This document shows positions 4,352-62,533 of a DNA stretch of 64,000 bases, one piece after another. The notes beneath the pieces are model-generated. The model was not told the origin of the DNA, did no database searches, and saw nothing but the letters and a program-made list of their open reading frames with translations. Within the stretch, counting starts at the first letter, position 1, and each line of letters opens with the position of its first letter. Position numbers and translations under genes: made by a program. Origin of the DNA: Eledone cirrhosa (lineage: Eukaryota); the NCBI GenBank assembly GCA_964016885.1, contig OZ024741.1:303800001-303864000 (forward strand), in the 5' to 3' direction.

Positions 4352-4799
4352 TCTCTCTCTCTCTCTCATTTTCTCTCTCACCCTTTCTGTTTCTCTCTCA
4401 CTTTCACTTTTTCTCACCTACTCTCTTTCTCTTTCACATTCTCTCTCTCATTCTCTCCCTCTCACACACACTCTATCTATCTATCTATCTATCTATCTGT
4501 CTTCCTATCTCTTGTTGACTCATTGCTCTGTTCAATTCAATTGGGTCTATCTGAGCGGGATAAGATTAGCAAACTTTAATTGAATGGGTGTGATGATTAT
4601 GATGATGTTGGTGATGATGGTGTAGGTGGGGTGGGGGTGTAAGTGAAGGTGCAATTGAAGGAGTAAGGTGAGGATAGATCATTGCTTATAATAAAAAAAA
4701 AAGAACGTCCTTTCTTTTGTTATTGGAAAGATTAAAAAAGTAAAGAGTGATGCGATGATCTTGAGCTAAAGAGGCATCTTCAAAGAAATAATTATAATA

Positions 4800-10742: not shown

Positions 10743-10784
10743 GTAATTTCCTTTCCTCTTCCTGTTTAACTCTTCAGCACCAAC

Positions 10785-13700
10785 ATGGCCAATATAAGAG
10801 TTGGATGTGTGAATGCACGCAGCCCGTGGATGTCCTGGAAACAGGGCAAACTCTTAAATGACCTCAGGTCGCACAGAGTGGATGTAATGGTTATTTGCGA
10901 GTCCAGGATCAGCAGCGAGCGCCAACTGGCCCCCATCTTCGACGACTTTGAGATATACGCATCTCTCTGTCAGCCAAGGGGTGGGGGTGGGGTTGTCGTT
11001 CTGCTGCGAAAATACCTGGGTCTTGCCACACAGAAGGTACACCTGGACCCGGAGGGTCGACTGGTGGTTTTAGACGTCGGCAGTGGTGAAGGTGGGGCTT
11101 TCAGGCTGGTGGCAGCGTATGCCCCATCTGGGACACCGCGACCGGACTTCCGACGCCTGGAGAATTTCCTGGGAACGTCTCGCTCCTTGTTTTTAGTGGG
11201 GGACTGGAATGGTATCCTGGATGCACGTTGGGACTATGTAGGGGCATATCCCGATAGAGGGGGTGTAACAGCCTCAAACGATTAATCGGCCGATTTGATC
11301 TGGCCGATAGATATCGACTAGATTTTCCGACTGTGCCACTGTGGACGTGGACTAATCTCAGCGGAACATCTAGGTCGTACCTAGATAGGTTCCTAGTTAG
11401 AAATAAGGATAGGGATATATTAAGCTGTCCACGAATGTTCATGGTTGACTATTCGGATCACAAGTTGGTGACCGGAGTGGTCAACCTTGATAGAACTCAT
11501 AGACAGGGACCCGGTTACTGGAAGCTAAACTTGTCTTTACCGACAAACAAAGCTTACAGTAAGCGGATTAGTACACTAGTTAAGCAGCGTTTGACGGGGG
11601 CAATTGTCAACAGCAGGTGGTGGGGCTCTCTCAAGAGAGAAATTAGAATAGAATCGATAGGTTTTAGTCGGGAATTAGCATCAGATAGGAATTGAACTGA
11701 AAGGGAATTAACAAATAGAGTAGAAGAAGCGATTAGGAGTGGCAACGTGGCCAGCATGCTGGCGTCAAGAACGGCCCTAGACCAGTTCTTTGATGCGAAG
11801 CACGAGGGATGCGTTGTCAGGAGTAAAATACGTGCTCTGGGTAACGAGGGAGCCAAAGCTGTTAGCTGGGACCGAGTGACAGAGGCAAAAAGTGGAAACA
11901 AGTCCACGATTCCGTCTTTGAAGGACCAGGATGGACGCGTGATCCTTGAACCTGAGTGGATGAGCGCGGCCTTTCAACGGCGCTTTGCACGACTGTTCGG
12001 GAGGGGCAGCGGGCCGGGTGGGGCCATGGATTTCGGTCCATACCTCGACGTTCTGGCGCGGCTCTCGGACGGAGAGGCGACGTCCTGCGAGAAGCCGATT
12101 TCAGCCGCTGAAATAGGGGAAGCCCTGAGCCAATGCGGCAAACGCAAATCTCCGGGTCTCGATGGTCTACCATACGAACTTTATGTAGCGATGCCGGGCT
12201 TGTTCTCCGGTCTCCTCGAGGCGGTCTACTGCAACTGGTAACAGAACGGGAGAATTCCCAGTTCTGTGACCAAGGGCGTAGTCACGCTGGTGAGGAAGGA
12301 CGAGAACAAGGGGAATGACATAGATAACTTCAGGCCCATAACTCTGCTAAACACAGAGTTAAAGATTTGGGCCAAGGTGTTAGCGAAGAGGTTGGCGCTT
12401 GTCGTCGGGAACCTGGTGGGAGAAGCACAGACATGCGCAATCCCGTCCAGGTCCATACACGACAACCTCCACCTCATGCGATACATCGTAGAGAGGGTAG
12501 GGAACGAACCCGGCTTTGGTGAGGCCCTGATCAACTTGGATCAATCTAAGGCGTTTGATAGGGTTGACCATCGGTACCTGGATGCGGTGCTCGCGGCGGC
12601 AGGCTTCGGACCCGTTTTCAGGGGCTGGATTGCTGCAATGCACAGCAGCAACACCTGCTCGAGGGTCAAGGTGAACGGCTACCTCTCGGAGCCGTTCCAA
12701 ATTACGCGATCCATCTGACAGGTATGCCCTCTCTCCTTCCTCCTGTATGTGCTGACTCTCGAGCCACTACTGCGGAAGCTTGAGCTGTTGCAGGGCATCC
12801 CCTAGGAACCAGGATTGCGGAAAGCGGTGTCAGCCTACGCCGATGACGTGACAGTAATGGTGTCGTGCGCCTCGGAAATCGGGCAGATCGGCACCTTACT
12901 GGATGAATATGAAAGGTTCACAGGAGCCAAGCTGAACCGGGACAAGTCCGTCGGTTTGCAACTCGGGAAGTGGAGGGGCAAAACGATGCCCTCCGACGAC
13001 ATCGTCGGACGCTGGACGGAGGGACCGGTGAAGCTGCTCGGGGTCTGGTTCGGACCGGACGTCCAGGTGGAGAATAACTGGGACGAGGTAACGGGCAAGG
13101 TGTTTGCACTCGCCCAGAAGTGGGCCGAGTGCAAACTATCCCTGAAAGGTCGAGCGGAGGCGGCGAACGCTTATATAGCGTCCGTCATCTACTACCGCTT
13201 GACGGTCGTGCCTTGCCCAGAGTAAACACTCGCCAAAATGGAGCGCGCGCTCTTCCGATTTCTTTGGAAGAAGCGGGCTCCTTTGGTGCGAAGATCCATC
13301 TGCTGTCAACACCCTTCGAACGGAGGGCTGGGGATGCCGTGGCTGACGATGCGTAGACACGCATTAAGGCTACGGCACCTCCAGGTATTCCTCACCGGTC
13401 ACGCCGGTGTGGGCCCTGCTTGTGAGGCGAACCTTTCCGAGACTCGTCTAACTCACCGAGCTGGGTCAAGCAAAGACCGAGAAAAGTGGGCGACTGGCAC
13501 ATTGAATGTGCCCAGGCGCTCACGGCCCTCTGGCAAGCGGATCCGGCAATCAGTGGAGACTCAACCTCAACATTCTATAGAGGGTTGGTGCGCAGTAAGT
13601 GCGACGACGCTCTCGGAGAGGCTCTGGGCATGGAGGAAGACGAGCTGGCCAGTCTGTTCGGTAGGACGTTTGGCCCGGGACCGATGTACAACTTCCAAAA

Positions 13701-14211
13701 GTCCCTGGCTTGGCAATGTTACCGAGGAGCTCTACCCGTTCGGGACAAGCTCTACAGACACGGGCGCCCGGGTAGGGACCCCTCGAAGAAGATCTGTCCG
13801 AGATGCGTGCGTGACGAGGAAACCGTCGCACACGCATTCGTACACTGCCCGGGCGTTGCTGACCTGTGGGGCTATGTGGAACGACTACTGTCGCGGGTGG
13901 GACCAATCCGGTTGACCACCGAGAACATTGTCACGATCAAACCGCCTCCCCCTTTCAAAAACGAAGGAGAGGCGGTTTTCCTCTGTATGATAGCTATGGC
14001 GAAAGAAGTTGTATGGTGGACAAGGTTGAAAGGGCTGAGGTCAGACACCTTTCTCTCCGGCCAACAACTGGTCTTTTTTTTCAAGTACCACTTTAGAAGA
14101 AGGATCAGAATGGAGAGAGAGGTGCTCTACCCCAGAAAGTTTTATGAAAGGTGGGTGAAAGTAACGAGAATGGCCCGAGTGAATGGGCCTTCTCTTTATA
14201 TCAGCCTGTAG
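10785..14211 (+). pseudogene. LINE ORF2: APE endonuclease + reverse transcriptase + zf-RVT, disrupted
   Basis: EN: CVNARS, ICESR, VGDWN, SYLDRFLV, SDH. RT: KSPGLDGLPYELY, FRPITLLN, LDQSKAFDRVDH, AYADD. C-terminal CPRC...ETVAHAFVHC. Stops at ~11695, 12241, 12718, 12804, 13225 plus frameshifts. Confidence 0.95.
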
Positions 14212-21089: not shown

Positions 21090-21259
21090 AGAGTTAAACA
21101 AGGTTCAATGAATACATCAAAGAATGAGTTTTACAATAGATTGGAAGCACTCAACATTAAAAATGTTTTCCAGAGTTATTAATATTAATTCAAAGTATTA
21201 ACAACTACCTTGATTGAATCTTAACCATCTACCATGTCAGGGTATGTCATGGATCATTT

Positions 21260-21326
21260 TATTTTATCTGATGAGGACGTACTGTTGAACTTAACTCAGT
21301 ACCTCTGAAATATGTATAATAAAATA
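21260..21326 (+). ncRNA. Type I hammerhead motif
   Basis: TATTTTAT-CTGATGA-GGACGTACTG...CAGTACCTCT-GAAA-TATGTAT-A-ATAAAATA; helix I is perfect. Confidence 0.65.
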
Positions 21327-23611: not shown

Positions 23612-23671
<60 letters not shown>

Positions 23672-23988
23672 TCGTTCTCTCTGTTTCTCTTACTTTCTTT
23701 CGTCCCCTCTGTCATGTCAGTTAACACCTTCTCTCTACTGACCTCTTCCTCGCACTTCCACTCATTCACTCTCTGTTTCTCCCCTTCTTACTTCCTCCCG
23801 TTCACTACGAAAACGATTTTCCTTCTTTCTAACATCGGATTCACTAACGAAAGGTCTAATTCTTACTCGCTCATATATTCACACAGCTTATGCTGACAGA
23901 ATAACCATGTCGCTTGTGTTTCCTTCCATCTTCGGTTAGCTTTCCCCTGTGTTGTTTACTTGTCTCACTCGCTTTACGCGTTTCAATT

Positions 23989-24089
23989 GTCCTAATAACT
24001 TATTTTAGTTATTGTCGCACCAACGTGAGGTATATGATTTTTAATGCGATGAAATACCAATGATCGTTGGCAAATCACTGATGGGGGAC
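23989..24089 (+). ncRNA. Non-circularly permuted hammerhead-like RNA with K-turn (copy 1; core A9->G)
   Basis: GGTAT-A-TGATTT ... TGCGAT-GAAA-TACC ... AAATCA-CTGATGG-GGGAC; helices covary with the 44369 copy. Confidence 0.6.
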
Positions 24090-24139
24090 TCATTTTATAA
24101 CATATAATCCATGTGCAACCATGCAGTATTCTTCTCCCC

Positions 24140-24214
<75 letters not shown>

Positions 24215-24769: not shown

Positions 24770-25307
24770 TATATATTACACAAAGAGAAATGTGTTACAC
24801 AGTGAGAAGTGTGTAAAGAATTATTACAAGTGATTTTACCGTTACTGTATAGGGAACAATATAGTTACGTCCCTTTACGATCTGAGTTCAAATCCCGCCG
24901 AGGTTGACTTTGCCTTTCATCCTTACGGGGTCGATAAAATAAAGTACCAGTAATGAACTGGGTTATTGCTGGCCTTGTGCCTAAAGTAGAAACAAATATC
25001 AACAGGTAAGCAATTAAATAGAAAAAAAACAGATCAGAATCAAATCTCTGGATTGGAATTTTAAATCACAAACCTTATAACTATATTTTGCTGATACGAA
25101 CCTAGTTTTTCGTTTCACCACTTATATGTGTCACCACCTATATGTGTAGAATAACAGTCCAACATGGATCATCAGTCAGCAAAATGCGAGACTGAATCCT
25201 GCACATCTAACCTTCAAAGCTAGAGAGATTGCAAATAGACACGCGGGCCAGAGTGGGCGAAATCACGTGTTATTCGAATCAAATAACGGCTCTCATATCT
25301 TCCCCAA

Positions 25308-37482: not shown

Positions 37483-38330
37483 AAGTGGCACAAAGTTTTC
37501 AAAGAGGGCCGAGAAAATGTTGAAGATGAACCTTGTTCTGAAAGGTCAATCTTCTCAATAAATGGACAAAATGTGGAAGTGGTACGAGTGGTGATGGCGA
37601 AAGATTGCCGATTGACTGAATGCAAAAGAAACTGGCTTGGATAAAAATGCTGTGCACAGAATTTGAATGGGCCATTTGCATATGCGATTGATTTGTGCAA
37701 AACTAGTGCTCAAACACTTGTCTGTGGAATAAAAAGCGAACCGGTTGGAAATTTGTCAGGATTTGCTAGGAAGACTCAAAATTGAGCCAAATTTCTGGAG
37801 AGGAATCACGGGTGTTCGAGTATGATCCAGAGACAAAAGGGCAAAGTGAGGAGTGGCACTCGAAATATTCTCCTCCTCCGAAGAAAGCACACTTGTAAAA
37901 ACTGATTATCGTTTTGTTTTGTTTTTTCGATAGCAAGGACAGTTAATCACACCTTCTGCAAAGATGTCTTGGAACGAGTCCGAAAGCGCATTGCAAGGGG
38001 TTGGGTACTGCACCACGATAACATACCTGCTCACACAGCACTTTCAATTAGAGAATTTCTGGCGAAGAAAAATATTTCCACACTTTCACATCCTCCCTAC
38101 AACTCAGATGTAGCTCCGTGTGATTTCTACCTCTTCTCTAAGTTGAAATCGAAGCTGAAGGGTCATCATTTTGGGACTGTGGAAAATATACAAATAATTG
38201 TAACTGATGAGCTAAGAACACTTAGAGAAAATGACTTCTGTTACTTCTACGATCCATGGAAAAAACGTTGGAACCACTGAGTGACTTCCCAAGGGTTGTA
38301 TTTTGAAGGAGATGACTTGAAATTTCATGT
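37483..38330 (+). pseudogene. mariner (DD34D) transposase relic
   Basis: KWHKVFKEGRENVEDEPCS, AKLVLKHLS, VFEYDPETKGQSEEW, LHHDNIPAH, HPPYNSDVAPCDFYLF. Confidence 0.92.
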
Positions 38331-41234: not shown

Positions 41235-41240
<6 letters not shown>

Positions 41241-41413
41241 AGATTCAGGACGCCAATGGCTGAGCTCCGGCCGTTTCGACAGCTGGATCCGAGCTGATCC
41301 AGCTGTCGAAACGGCCGGAGCTAACCCACTGGGGTCCTGAATCTTTTCATATTACCCACTCTACTACCCTAAGTATCGAGTACTCTGGTGCGTTATGGTC
41401 CACCCTCTTTACT
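41235..41413 (+). mobile_element. Palindromic mini-PLE end (half-HHR) plus shared tail
   Basis: 116-bp hairpin around cagctgtcGAAACGGC, then tacccactctactaccctaagtatcgagtact; embedded in (TA)n. Confidence 0.8.
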
Positions 41414-41431
41414 ATATATATATATATATAT

Positions 41432-41561
<130 letters not shown>

Positions 41562-41608
41562 AATGAATAATAACAGGTAGACATCATAAAAAGGTAATTT
41601 ATTCCGTG

Positions 41609-41720
41609 TGCTTACAAGTGTTTCCACGGTGGTACTGCAGCCTAGTTCCGCTACGTGCAAATTCACAAGTATTTGCAGAACTCGAATATCCAATGCTGTG
41701 ACCACTGTTTCCTCAGAGCA
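41609..41720 (-). ncRNA. Type I hammerhead with long helix II (inverted pLTR copy)
   Basis: Reverse complement of 43261-43372. Confidence 0.75.
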
Positions 41721-41745
41721 GAATGGTAAATGTACAATGTAAAAA

Positions 41746-42756
41746 CGCCTATCGTCTAACTCTGATATTTTTAGTGAACATGCTGAATACTACAATAATG
41801 CATTAAGGAATGCTGACCACCGGGATACAATAGAATACATCGATAGTAATTTCCACAACACACATAGCTCTACACGTAATCAAGGTATACGTAACCGGGG
41901 GACTAAAACACAAGCACACACACACGGTACTACCAGACATACTAATAATAGAAGATCACCACCAAATAAATCACGTTGTAGAAAGTATATCTGGTATAAT
42001 CCTATTTTTAATGCCTCGATTAGTACAAAACTATCTCTTTCATTCTTTAAATTAATCAATAAACACTTCCCTAGTTCCCATAAGTACAGCAAAATTCTGA
42101 ACTCTAAAACTATTAGACTATCGTACTCCACGGCACCTAACCTTGAAGCATACATAAAAAAACTTAACTTAAGGCAATTAAACAACTCTACAAAACAAAA
42201 CATTTTAGTAACAGATGGGCAGAACGCAATATCTGCCTCCCAACCACTAAATGGGAGACGGGTATTACACAACCCACCTGTACCGCTATCACAACCTATC
42301 CATGGTATACCCGCTACCCACAACAAAGAATGTAACTGCCATCTACCTGAAAGATGTCCATTGCAGAATGAATGCCTAAAGTCCAACATTGTTTACCAAT
42401 GCACGGTTGAATCGAACGACCAGAAATGGTATTATATCGGATCTACCACCACATCGTTTAAATCTCGCTGGTACCGTCATCGATTCTCAATCAAACATCC
42501 GAATCACTGTTTTGTGACCACGCTCGCCAACAAGACCTGGCAACTCCGTGAACACAACCAACAGTTCACCTTAAAATGGGATATACTTTCCAGCGCAATT
42601 GCATATCGGAGTGGATCGAAGTACTGCAGGTTATGTAACCTTGAGCTATTTTACATACTAAAATCCAAAAACAAACTACTTAACGATAGAATTGAACGAT
42701 CATTATACTGCAACCACAAACTAAAAGCTAAATTCTCTCACTATAAAATAACTTAA
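41746..42756 (+). CDS. Uninterrupted C-terminal ~336 aa of a PLE ORF (RT thumb, CxC linker, GIY-YIG endonuclease); lacks its 5' end
   Basis: Open frame RLSSNSDIF...IWYNPIF...KHFPSSHKYSKILN...CNCHLPERCPLQNECLKSNIVY...YYIGSTTTSFKSRWYRH...CRLCNLE...LLNDR...CNH*. Confidence 0.88.
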   Translation, partial: RLSSNSDIFSEHAEYYNNALRNADHRDTIEYIDSNFHNTHSSTRNQGIRNRGTKTQAHTHGTTRHTNNRRSPPNKSRCRKYIWYNPIFNASISTKLSLSFFKLINKHFPSSHKYSKILNSKTIRLSYSTAPNLEAYIKKLNLRQLNNSTKQNILVTDGQNAISASQPLNGRRVLHNPPVPLSQPIHGIPATHNKECNCHLPERCPLQNECLKSNIVYQCTVESNDQKWYYIGSTTTSFKSRWYRHRFSIKHPNHCFVTTLANKTWQLREHNQQFTLKWDILSSAIAYRSGSKYCRLCNLELFYILKSKNKLLNDRIERSLYCNHKLKAKFSHYKIT

Positions 42757-44182: not shown

Positions 44183-44368
44183 CATATATATATGTGTATC
44201 GAAATTCTTTCCTTGCTCACATTTCTACCAGGTTCGATGGTCTTTCGTCTCTTGTTCACGATTTCACAGAGTTTATATTCATAGAGATCTGGGACTTGTC
44301 TATTTCTACTCACTTTCCGTTGCTTAAACCCTTTTTGTTGTTACTCTAGCGTCCCCCTTTATTTACGT

Positions 44369-44470
44369 GTCCCAACGACTTTTTTTAGCCGTTGTTCGCA
44401 CCAACCTGAGGCATATGGCCCTTAAAGCGATGAAATGCCGAGGACGGTTGGAGGGTCACTGATGAAGGAC
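44369..44470 (+). ncRNA. Non-circularly permuted hammerhead-like RNA with K-turn (copy 2; intact core)
   Basis: GGCAT-A-TGGCCCT ... GCGAT-GAAA-TGCC ... AGGGTCA-CTGATGA-AGGAC; predicted cleavage after 44415. Confidence 0.65.
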
Positions 44471-44486
44471 TCACTTTTTCATATAA

Positions 44487-44886
<400 letters not shown>

Positions 44887-59084: not shown

Positions 59085-61127
59085 AGCAACAAACTACTAA
59101 CTGAATTTGAAAATGAAGTAATATCTATTATACAAAACATTAAATTTAAAAAAAACAATTTATAGGCCAGGAATACCTTAAAGGCCTCAAGAATAATATA
59201 GACAATCTTGAAAAAACTAAGAAGATCCTCGTTAAATCTGATAAAACTAATAATTTATACGGGATGGAAAAGGACGAATATAATAACCTTATATTGAAAG
59301 AACTCAGAAAAAACTACAAAATAACAACAAATGAAGATCTTTCAACACTAAATAGAGAAGCTTCTGAAATTATTCATAAATTAGGCATCCAACATAGGAC
59401 TGAACCCTTTATACCTAGAAAACCGAAAATTAACCTGAAAGACCACAAAAGAAATTTTGAAATAGAACTACCAGTCTGACTTATAGCACCATCTACATCA
59501 GACTTAGGCATAATTAGTAAATATATATTAGATAGAATTATACTACAACTTAAAGAAAAATCACACCTGAAACTATGGAACGGTACTAACGAAGTTATAG
59601 ATTGGTTCAATAACATAAAATTTAAACATAACAAAAAATTCATTGAAATGGATATTGCAAACTACTACTCTTCTATTACTCCTAGTTTACTTAATAAAGC
59701 TCTTATATATGCATCTAAACATACAGACCTATCTAGTGATGAAATGAATATAATTCTAACAGCACGGACACACTAATAGAATTCAATAATCATCTCTGGA
59801 CAAGAGCCGATACAAAAAATAATTTTGATATCACTATGGGATCACCTGGCGCAAATAACGGATCTTGTTGGTTTATTTATTAACAATGTACTGCATAGGA
59901 AAATGCCAGAGATGACTGCTGGTTTATATCGTGATGATATGCTGCTTTTAATTGAAAACCATAGTAATTGTGAAATTAATAGGTAAAGAAAATCCATAAT
60001 ACAATTCTTCAATAACTACAAACTTAAGTTAGAAATAGAGAATAACTATAAAAATTGTTAACTTCTTAAACGTAACCTTAAACCTTAGCACAGGTCTTTA
60101 CTATCCTTTCCATAAAATTAACGAAAATCTAAATTATGTAAATTTTAACTCTAATCATCCTAGAAGTATTAAGAACACTATTGTCAATAGCGTCCAACAA
60201 CGGATTTCACGTATCTCTGCTAATAAAAATATTTTTGTTGATAAGGCTGAATATTATAATGAAGCTTTAAATAGAGCAGGATATTCGAATAAAATTAAAT
60301 ACATTGATAACAATAACATGGCAAATCACCCTAGTATTAATTATAATAATAATAAACAATTTAACTTAAACACTAAACCAAACAAAAAAAACTATAACTA
60401 AAAATATTATTTGGTACTCCCCCCCCCCCTATTCTCTTTAAGCGTTAAAACACTTTTAGCAAAGCTATTTTTTTAAAGCACTAGACAAATGTTTTCCTAA
60501 AGCCCACAGATACCACTCTATTTGTAACAGACATAATATAAAAATATCCTACTCTACTACTATGAACATAGCACAAAACATAAATAGAATTAATAATAGA
60601 AACTTAAGTTTAAACCCTAACCAAAATTGCAATAATAATAATTATAGGAATATCCAGTATAATAGTACCGTTCCGAGCAACAACAACTCCGTAAAATGTA
60701 ACTGTAGAATCAAATCAAACTGCCCTTTACAAAATAATTGTTTAGTTAAAAATGTAGTTTATAAATGCACTGTTAAAACTAGAGATAATATATTTAACTA
60801 TGTCGGTGCCACGTCTACAGAATTTAAACAACGCTGGAATAACCATAATCATACTTTTAAAAGATCTGATAAAAAATCTTCTACTTCACTTTCACATCTT
60901 ATATGGAACTTAAAAAGCAAGAATATAGACTATTCAATATCTTGGAAAGCCATATTTCGAAAGCACCTGCATACCGAAATATGGCTTTATCAAAATTCTG
61001 TAGATTATGTATCGATGAATTTTTTTATATAATTAACTGTCAAAACTCTATTAATCTCAGAACAGAATTATTTTCTTCTTGCAGACATCGTCAACATTCC
61101 ACGTTCAGAACTATGTTTAATTTATAA
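59085..61127 (+). pseudogene. Penelope-like (Naiad-type) RT + GIY-YIG ORF, frameshifted
   Basis: LVKSDKTNNLY, INLKDHKRNF, EMDIANYYSSI, FDITMGS, GLYRDDML, YVNFNSNHP, CNCRIKSNCPLQNNCLVKNVVY...YVGATSTEFKQRWNNH, CRLC...INLRTELFSSCRH. Confidence 0.93.
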
Positions 61128-62172
61128 TATTCCTTAAACCTTCAAAATGATCTTATCTTCTTTAACAATTTAAAATTTTTAATATTTTAACATCTTAATA
61201 TTTATAAATGGTAATATCTCTAATATTGTAATATTTTCACCTCTCAGCAAAAATTCCTTTAATATATATACATATATATATTTATTTATATATATAATGT
61301 ATGTATATAATTTTTAATTTTTAATCTTTTAATTTTTACATTATTATTTTTCTAATGACACTCTATAAAAACATTTTTAGACGTAGTTTGATAATCATTA
61401 ATTGAAAAATGTATCCTCTTCACGACAGTTTCTTAGATAAACACATCACGTATCTCCTCTTTTGGTTTTTATGATTCTCAAACATTCACACATCTTTCGA
61501 CTAAAATAATTAATTAATCTCACACTTCTTCAAATTCATCGATTAACAAACTAAATTGGAGTTATCTTTCCTTTCTCAGTTATTATATATGAAACTCCGA
61601 TAAATTAACAATATTGTAATACATCTTCAACGCTGAACAAAATATTCAAATCTATCTATTTACATATAACACAAAATCAACTTCCCTCGTAACTCATATT
61701 ATAAACAACTAATAACTGTAAATTATCAATATCTCTTTAACAATTATTAATATATATAGATATTTATACATATATCCTAATACAATATTTCAATAAGATA
61801 CAAACATAATTCTCCATATAAGTATAATATAGGTAAATATTCAAATTTTTCTTCCCCCAAATTAACGTAAATATGTGGTCTTCTTTTCTTTTTCTTTTTC
61901 TTTTTCTTTTTCTTTTTCTTTTTCTTTTTCTTTTTCTTTTTCTTTTTCTTTTTCTTTTTTCTTTTTCTCCCTTTTTCTTTCTCTCCTAATAATACAAACA
62001 TATATCTAAATTTACCCAGCGTCTAAAATAACGGTTTTTCAATCATATACCCAACCTCATTTACATATTCATTAGCATACTCATCCTAACAATTTTAAAT
62101 CCACTATCCAAGGAATACTTCAACTGATAAAGTATGTTCCTTGGCTATGTCAAAATTTATAAACACACTTTG

Positions 62173-62234
62173 TATTTTATCTGATGAAAGCGTACCAAAG
62201 TTTTTGATACCCTTGAAATATATATAATAGAATA
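62173..62234 (+). ncRNA. Type I hammerhead at the end of the Naiad 3' UTR
   Basis: TATTTTAT-CTGATGA-AAGCGTACCAAAG/TTTTGATACCCTT-GAAA-TATATAT-A-ATAGAATA; same family as 21260/21419. Confidence 0.7.
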
Positions 62235-62259: not shown

Positions 62260-62533
62260 ATATCACATAAGAAACGGAGAATCAGTGGTGCGACGAATAA
62301 AATTTATTAGATATATTACAATCTGAGGACCTTGCGATTTCAGAGTCAGGTTCGATCATTACATCGATCGTGCCTCGAGCTGGTCGCCAGAGAAACGATT
62401 GTAATATGTCTAATAAATTTTATTCGTCGCACCACTGATTCTCCGTTTCTTATGTGATATTATACTCTGCTCTGTAAAAGCATCGAGTGCTCAAACGGCA
62501 TACCGCTTACGGACGCTTTAAGCATCCCACACC

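Follow-up and report, generated by a model that had tools for sequence, protein, structure and literature searches.

The window, by which we mean the whole 64,000-nt stretch of Eledone cirrhosa DNA analyzed (contig OZ024741.1), contains two repeat elements on its plus strand, each inserted in (TA)n and each carrying a predicted hammerhead ribozyme with its three conserved blocks in a scrambled order. The elements belong to two repeat families, A and B, and their predicted ribozymes are called copies A and B. The initial annotation placed both near the 3' ends of pyrimidine-rich units that end in (TA)n; the elements span 23670-24146 (A) and 44200-44484 (B). The features are as follows.

23613-23669 and 24146-24213: TA arrays flanking the family-A element
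23670-24146 (+): family-A element, a 5'-truncated single unit (477 of 533 bp), non-coding, pyrimidine-rich, in (TA)n
23989-24089 (+): copy A, predicted type-SGC hammerhead, position-9 A-to-G variant
23989-24018 (+): copy A splint strand (bridge b, hairpin, bridge a)
23989-23992 / 24086-24089 (+): copy A bridge b, 4 pairs, part of the splint strand
23993-24014 (+): copy A hairpin, between bridges b and a on the splint strand
24015-24018 / 24046-24049 (+): copy A bridge a, 4 pairs, part of the splint strand
24020-24025 / 24065-24070 (+): copy A outer helix
24020-24028, partner 24059-24070 (+): copy A outer-helix 5' strand and non-bulged side of the predicted kink-turn
24029-24033 / 24054-24058 (+): copy A helix III
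24035-24040 / 24072-24077 (+): copy A helix I
24029-24040 (+): copy A block S, with helix III strand, AUA triplet, predicted cut after 24034, and helix I strand
24046-24058 (+): copy A block G, with bridge-a partner, position 11.1 (24050), GAAA (24051-24054) and helix III strand
24072-24089 (+): copy A block C, with helix I strand, heptamer (24078-24084), position 10.1 (24085) and bridge-b partner
24100-24146 (+): Penelope-type tail between alternative 3' ends, with an AC-loop hairpin at 24114-24125
44200-44484 (+): family-B element, 5'-truncated, ending at the short 3' end, in (TA)n
44369-44470 (+): copy B, predicted type-SGC hammerhead, core intact, predicted cut after 44415

The blocks run from the cleavage site to GAAA and then CUGAUGA (S-G-C), an order that is neither one of the canonical types I-III nor a circular permutation. 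A pattern with GAAA before CUGAUG occurs twice in the window against 0.02 occurrences expected, and in a descriptor scan of three arrays plus copy B, SGC was the sole order found within 120 nt. Each of the helices annotated earlier was found in place, and the predicted cut after 24034 agrees with hammerhead numbering. An Rfam search of both elements gave no hammerhead family up to E 10 for either copy, and Rfam matches over the whole window were mostly to microsatellites. Nested folding was discarded as a test of the fold, being uninformative for such a pseudoknot: free energy gives no support because no signal against shuffles appears on the plus strand (z -0.65, -0.95) and copy A, read on its minus strand, folds better than its shuffles (z -3.14). 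The numbers of G-U and A-C cells (16 vs 12) are too close to tell the strands apart, and the strand was assigned from the core letters and the polarity of the elements.

The pairings were said to be kept despite many differences between a second, diverged copy and the first. The two copies are indeed diverged, but they belong to separate subfamilies and are not sister copies. Comparing them over 34 proposed pairs, 23 are unchanged, seven have changed on both sides, three have changed on one side and still pair, and one is broken. When the same 18 changes were scattered at random in 200,000 trials, none reached seven or more two-sided changes and a single trial gave one break or fewer, although this null flatters the fold since the fold itself was derived from these sequences. 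A larger alignment of 15 copies, representing about a dozen subfamilies, combined the two window copies with 13 of 16 medoids, one from each of the groups into which the 164 complete instances (of 189) had been clustered. The medoids left out were the window copy itself, one with a deletion and one near-duplicate; five of the 13 included are single copies. In this alignment, the core letters of which were partly selected by the search pattern, 96.5% of cells are paired and 16 of the 34 pairs show two-sided changes. None of 500 shuffles matched this (a control that leaves relatedness in), and slid controls reached 24–44%. Compensatory changes recur in this larger sample, and this covariation supports the proposal that RNA structure was under selection in the source elements.

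Two-sided changes were found in 5/6 pairs of helix I, 5/6 of the outer helix, 4/7 in the hairpin of the splint strand and 1/5 in helix III. The bridges are 100% (b) and 95% (a) paired but invariant, and since the four-pair bridges hardly vary, covariation within this genome lends the splints no support. As annotated originally they were longer; the four-pair forms are present, but the claimed fifth pairs fail across subfamilies (4/15 and 10/15). Helix II, between blocks C and G, would comprise one covarying direct pair, 10.1-11.1 (A-U, G-U or U-A in 14/15), followed by the invariant splints. A kink-turn consists of a helix, a 3-nt bulge, tandem G-A/A-G pairs and a second helix. The outer region fits this pattern, the letters of the G-A tandem being present in 15/15, 15/15, 15/15 and 13/15 copies, and may bend and bind protein. 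The outer helix would bring the tips of stems I and II together, a predicted geometric role.

At family level the core elements CUGAnGA, GAAA and UH are all present, and position 17 is A or C but never G in the 15 copies. Copy A deviates at position 9, where its heptamer has G (24084). This variant is rare (G in 4 exact copies vs A in 400), so the family core is intact, and the earlier suggestion of a probably inactive ribozyme may hold for copy A but does not extend to its family. In a whole-unit search that did not use the core as query, the heptamer was intact in 25 of 30 family-A loci; of the others, two have G, one has T and two were unparsed.

The host repeats are abundant, with 3,419 candidates for family A in the genome (40 scored, 95–100% identical over the whole length) and 1,932 for family B (40 scored, 99–100% identical). 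Their units, 533 bp and about 96% alike in A, and about 720 bp and 99–100% alike in B, contain no ORF and form head-to-tail arrays of up to nine units that are 5' truncated and end in (TA)n; head-to-head insertions also occur. The core pattern has 13,167 exact matches in the genome, against none for a reversed control. Family B is also present in contigs from four sequencing runs (three organisms). Among 143 pattern-derived instances, 109 have the start of a (TA)n array within reach, and these 3' ends lie 61–68 nt (23 cases) or 105–127 nt (80 cases) past the predicted cut, with six in between. The stretch between the two 3' ends is the Penelope tail. In their two alternative 3' ends, partial tandems, inverted copies and insertion into (TA)n the repeats agree with Penelope-like elements. 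They have the traits of non-autonomous ones, namely tandem units that are non-coding and carry a single ribozyme, 5' truncation, a tail and inversions.

Insertion boundaries were compared with the predicted cut in three samples. A short motif from Acropora Naiad entries, which does not include the cut site, retrieved at least 120 metagenome loci that are called coral-Naiad-like from their likeness, by eye, to the Acropora entries; 23 at contig ends were dropped, leaving 97 insertions. Among these listed loci, 57 of the 97 insertions have their start in the interval from 9 nt 3' to 3 nt 5' of the predicted cut. The 25 nt immediately before this interval contain no start, and the 76 nt beyond those contain 13. 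No Naiad ORF was seen in the 120 listed loci; their pairing stands at 93.6%, with two-sided changes in 4/51 pairs, not above shuffles on that measure. In a mixed-family sample from the Eledone genome, the 15 positions at the cut contain 14/48 boundaries and the adjoining 12 contain none; the remaining 34 are spread over 136 positions (p 1.6e-4 assuming independence, with one event counted twice among the boundaries). Seven of the 14 ends at the cut abut (TA)n and may reflect microhomology. The family-A-only sample (63 loci) shows no such cliff: 8 of 62 resolved ends lie at -11 to +3 and seven in the next 27 nt. The axis coincides with the predicted cut in two of nine head-to-head insertions. 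Most family-A insertions read through the cut, which implies that the productive template would be uncut or re-ligated. Adjacent array units are closer to each other than the family median in 30/34 comparisons, and identity within arrays relative to the nearest outside unit is lower in 11/34, equal in 9 and higher in 14, overlapping loci confounding both counts; within-array identity does not favor a single circular template and does not decide the matter. One metagenome copy (L167; minus strand, around 4501-4553 and the sequence 3' of these positions) begins 5 nt from the predicted cut, on its 3' side. It continues across a 5' start resembling that of Naiads and into a non-coding unit of 400 bp, and may represent a non-autonomous monomer of the coral type.

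Naiads target (TA)n and, in the portion of the original description available to us, are reported without canonical hammerheads, with only 'HHR_core' and 'HHR_half_core' noted and some having a half-core with the other half on either side (Craig et al. 2021, PMC8557442). File S5 of that study holds 54 Naiad consensus sequences, part of which was read by eye in a format where line breaks hide motifs. In this part, nine consensus sequences end in the S-G-C blocks, accompanied by the two splints, a hairpin and an outer helix: Naiad_Ovul, the preceding entry (Naiad_Obim by list order), three from Acropora, and four unnamed passages (parts 9, 12, 12 and 19); three further cases are partial. The octopus entries and family A have, by eye, a common 11-nt hairpin loop and the kink-turn letters. 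The splint sequences differ between Naiad groups and each still pairs, which supplies the support for the splints that is absent within the Eledone genome. Six nematode-region passages of File S5, three of them Nippostrongylus, read by eye as C-S-G with a direct helix II; type CSG is known from two sequences in the accessible text of Eckert et al. 2023 (PMC10085705). No core was seen in the bivalve entries examined by eye in File S5.

The Eledone genome also carries a decayed Naiad-like family (57 matches, DKA-type motifs) related to proteins with an N-terminal GIY-YIG domain and a C-terminal RT. An S-G-C motif lies 3' of the RT in 9/21 Naiad-remnant loci. This form has a GUC triplet, and in 36 copies its helices I and III are 86% and 84% paired versus 5–43% when slid, which is complementarity within one old family and not covariation. 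Its periphery differs from that of families A and B, and U3-A8 replaces C3-G8 in 31/36 copies. The swap is a known working variant of the hammerhead; a literature search for it as such found no report. The old Naiad 3' region (L372:1613-1802, minus strand, and 35 related loci; 901 candidates in the genome) has a hairpin between blocks S and G. Limited searches of this assembly found no young, intact Naiad, although family B is 99–100% identical: four Naiad motif patterns gave 0, 0, 0 and 4 matches, one of which is a decayed Naiad, and a search with that fragment found no homologue. A representative search gave 70 hits. The ribozyme form of families A and B was on no Naiad ORF found in the genome. 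The units themselves have no Naiad ORF (N-terminal GIY-YIG, DKA motif, C-terminal RT) that would place them in the clade, and what we propose from the sequences is that they probably descend from a Naiad 3' end without being autonomous members of the clade. For the autonomous source that the initial annotation presumed, a Naiad 3' end is the most likely candidate from the match in layout by eye, though a young intact copy was not found.

Comparison with known systems is limited to the parts of the cited papers that were accessible. The type-SGC ribozyme HRIMA-1 and its variants (Eckert et al. 2023, PMC10085705) have the same S-G-C order and hammerhead core, a short linker connecting helix I with the side of helix II, and a helix joining the tips of I and II. 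They came from metatranscriptome contigs, with none in the genomes of known organisms, and were shown to cleave, whereas the copies here are genomic and their cleavage is predicted from sequence. Helix II is direct in the published ribozymes; here it consists of a single pair and two splints that flank a hairpin, and a kink-turn pattern links helix III to the extra helix. That connection was hard to reconcile with the crystal structure (PMC10085705), a geometry problem to which the kink-turn would be a natural answer. Naiads (PMC8557442) share (TA)n targets, 5' truncation, partial tandems, inverted copies and a tail with the present repeats, which differ in being 530–750-bp units without an ORF. 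Non-LTR retrozymes (Li, Clavereau, Pollet, bioRxiv 10.64898/2026.07.22.740005) are likewise non-coding tandem units with one hammerhead each and derive from Penelope terminal repeats, but they are defined by type I hammerheads alone, and the available text describes no Naiad-derived or permuted case. The Poseidon element PAc (Frangieh 2024, PMC11167929) resembles the repeats in having two RT start sites downstream of the cut, giving a tail, and these flank an AC-rich stem-loop comparable to the AC-loop hairpin at 24114-24125; PAc differs in its canonical type I hammerhead, C-terminal endonuclease and autonomy.

We read each element as a copy of a tandem non-coding repeat with a scrambled, S-G-C hammerhead that is predicted to cut itself and likely derives from a Naiad 3' end, and we give this a probability of about 0.78. 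Block order, covarying helices, copy number and insertion pattern can be read directly from the genome; for folding, cutting, circles and enzyme we propose the following. The RNA would fold as a multi-pseudoknot in which the upstream strand splints helix II and the kink-turn bends the helix III extension back to the tips of helices I and II. Transcripts of tandem arrays would be cut once per unit by this pseudoknotted hammerhead. A Penelope-type reverse transcriptase acting in trans would then prime at an internal site roughly 66 or 114 nt beyond the cut, inserting the copy at a nick in (TA)n. Short insertions that end at the cut, or folded-back ones, would come from a cut, linear template. 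The 5'-truncated tandems would come from one that is uncut or re-ligated (circular), these last two being about equally likely. Copy A would be slow or dead through its position-9 change in a family that is core-intact.

The fold might instead be a binding or initiation platform for a retroelement protein, with cleavage weak, protein-dependent or dispensable. Such a role would suit the family-A insertions that cross the cut, and it has a precedent in the Poseidon element, where, in the text available, cleavage depended on the protein, insertion was normal with catalytic mutants, and RNA-seq showed no reads ending at the cut (PMC11167929). We nevertheless think it unlikely, given that the catalytic letters are fixed while the helices covary, that the old Naiads of this genome keep U3-A8 in 31/36 copies, and that the metagenome family has a sharp boundary at the predicted cut. 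A canonical hammerhead formed across two tandem units, with S and C from one and G from the next, could be drawn within 800 nt in 2/3 arrays scanned. It is a far weaker proposal, as SGC alone was found within 120 nt, the covarying outer helix ties block S to its own G and C blocks, and in full-length Naiads, from the partial source, the next unit is 3.4–4.4 kb away. Least credible is a box C/D snoRNA-like or other non-catalytic kink-turn RNA in which the hammerhead letters are coincidental. An Rfam C/D snoRNA match points that way, but it is weak (25.3 bits vs a cut-off of 65, E 0.098) and copy B lacks one. The H and K subfamilies have altered box-C-like letters, and helices I and III meet exactly at the NUH triplet.

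A further alternative concerns the mobilizing enzyme and not the fold, and proposes that Neptune-like elements, with a C-terminal endonuclease, move the repeats in place of Naiads, whatever the origin of the ribozyme. In a GIY-YIG search with 150 matches, 46 loci were examined, and the domain was C-terminal in every frame read. These elements are abundant and partly intact, and Penelope-like open frames with a C-terminal GIY-YIG reach 938 aa (L333), 844 aa (L334) and 1,096 aa (L335); their proteins are candidate trans-acting enzymes. The existence of such frames favors Neptune-like mobilization, as does the decay of every Naiad match. Against it, none of 15 C-terminal-endonuclease 3' regions has the SGC motif as its own, those read by eye having canonical-order hammerheads, and the Naiad searches behind the picture of general decay were limited. 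We regard it as a tenable but doubtful account. ORFs beside pattern matches in L127 and L112 had been considered as a source and were set aside; they encode a C-terminal endonuclease and have a canonical hammerhead of their own.

With the self-cutting, Naiad-derived repeat as the preferred reading, this would be a variant of a known but very rare kind of ribozyme, found in a new kingdom at high copy number. A literature search, with subscription papers outside its coverage, found no report of permuted hammerheads in Naiads or animals. A wider claim, which we hold slightly more probable than its negation, is that much of the Naiad clade, in cnidarians, nematodes, arthropods and cephalopods, has SGC and CSG hammerheads as its native working ribozymes, and that these gave rise to tens of thousands of circular-RNA retrozymes, so that the rarest topologies would be among the commonest in animal genomes, with insertion ends recording cleavage in vivo. 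If the preferred reading is right, non-circularly permuted ribozymes would move from metatranscriptome contigs into animal genomes, and it would be solved why Naiads appeared to be without hammerheads when the canonical endonuclease-bearing Penelope-like clades have them. Surveys with type I-III descriptors would overlook the whole class. The role of Penelope hammerheads would become directly testable, because insertion ends can be read against the predicted cut.

Several other features occur in the window. Fragments of C-terminal-endonuclease Penelope-like ORFs lie at 41743-42756 (+), with a GIY-YIG match at E 0.0018, and at 59200-61100 (+); the 3' terminal sequence of the former is repeated in inverted orientation at about 41560-41742. 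Canonical-order (type I-like) hammerhead motifs occur at the ends of other repeats, at about 21255-21325 (+), 25095-25190 (-) and 62165-62220 (+), the second having a 10-pair helix I. A frame at 37906-38280 (-) resembles a mariner-type transposase fragment, and 10770-14211 (+) holds a fragmented non-LTR retrotransposon with, by eye, endonuclease-like and RT-like frames. Long palindromic element ends in (TA)n are found at 41240-41345, 44558-44669 and 62270-62460, and similar palindromes recur beside many of the other loci examined.
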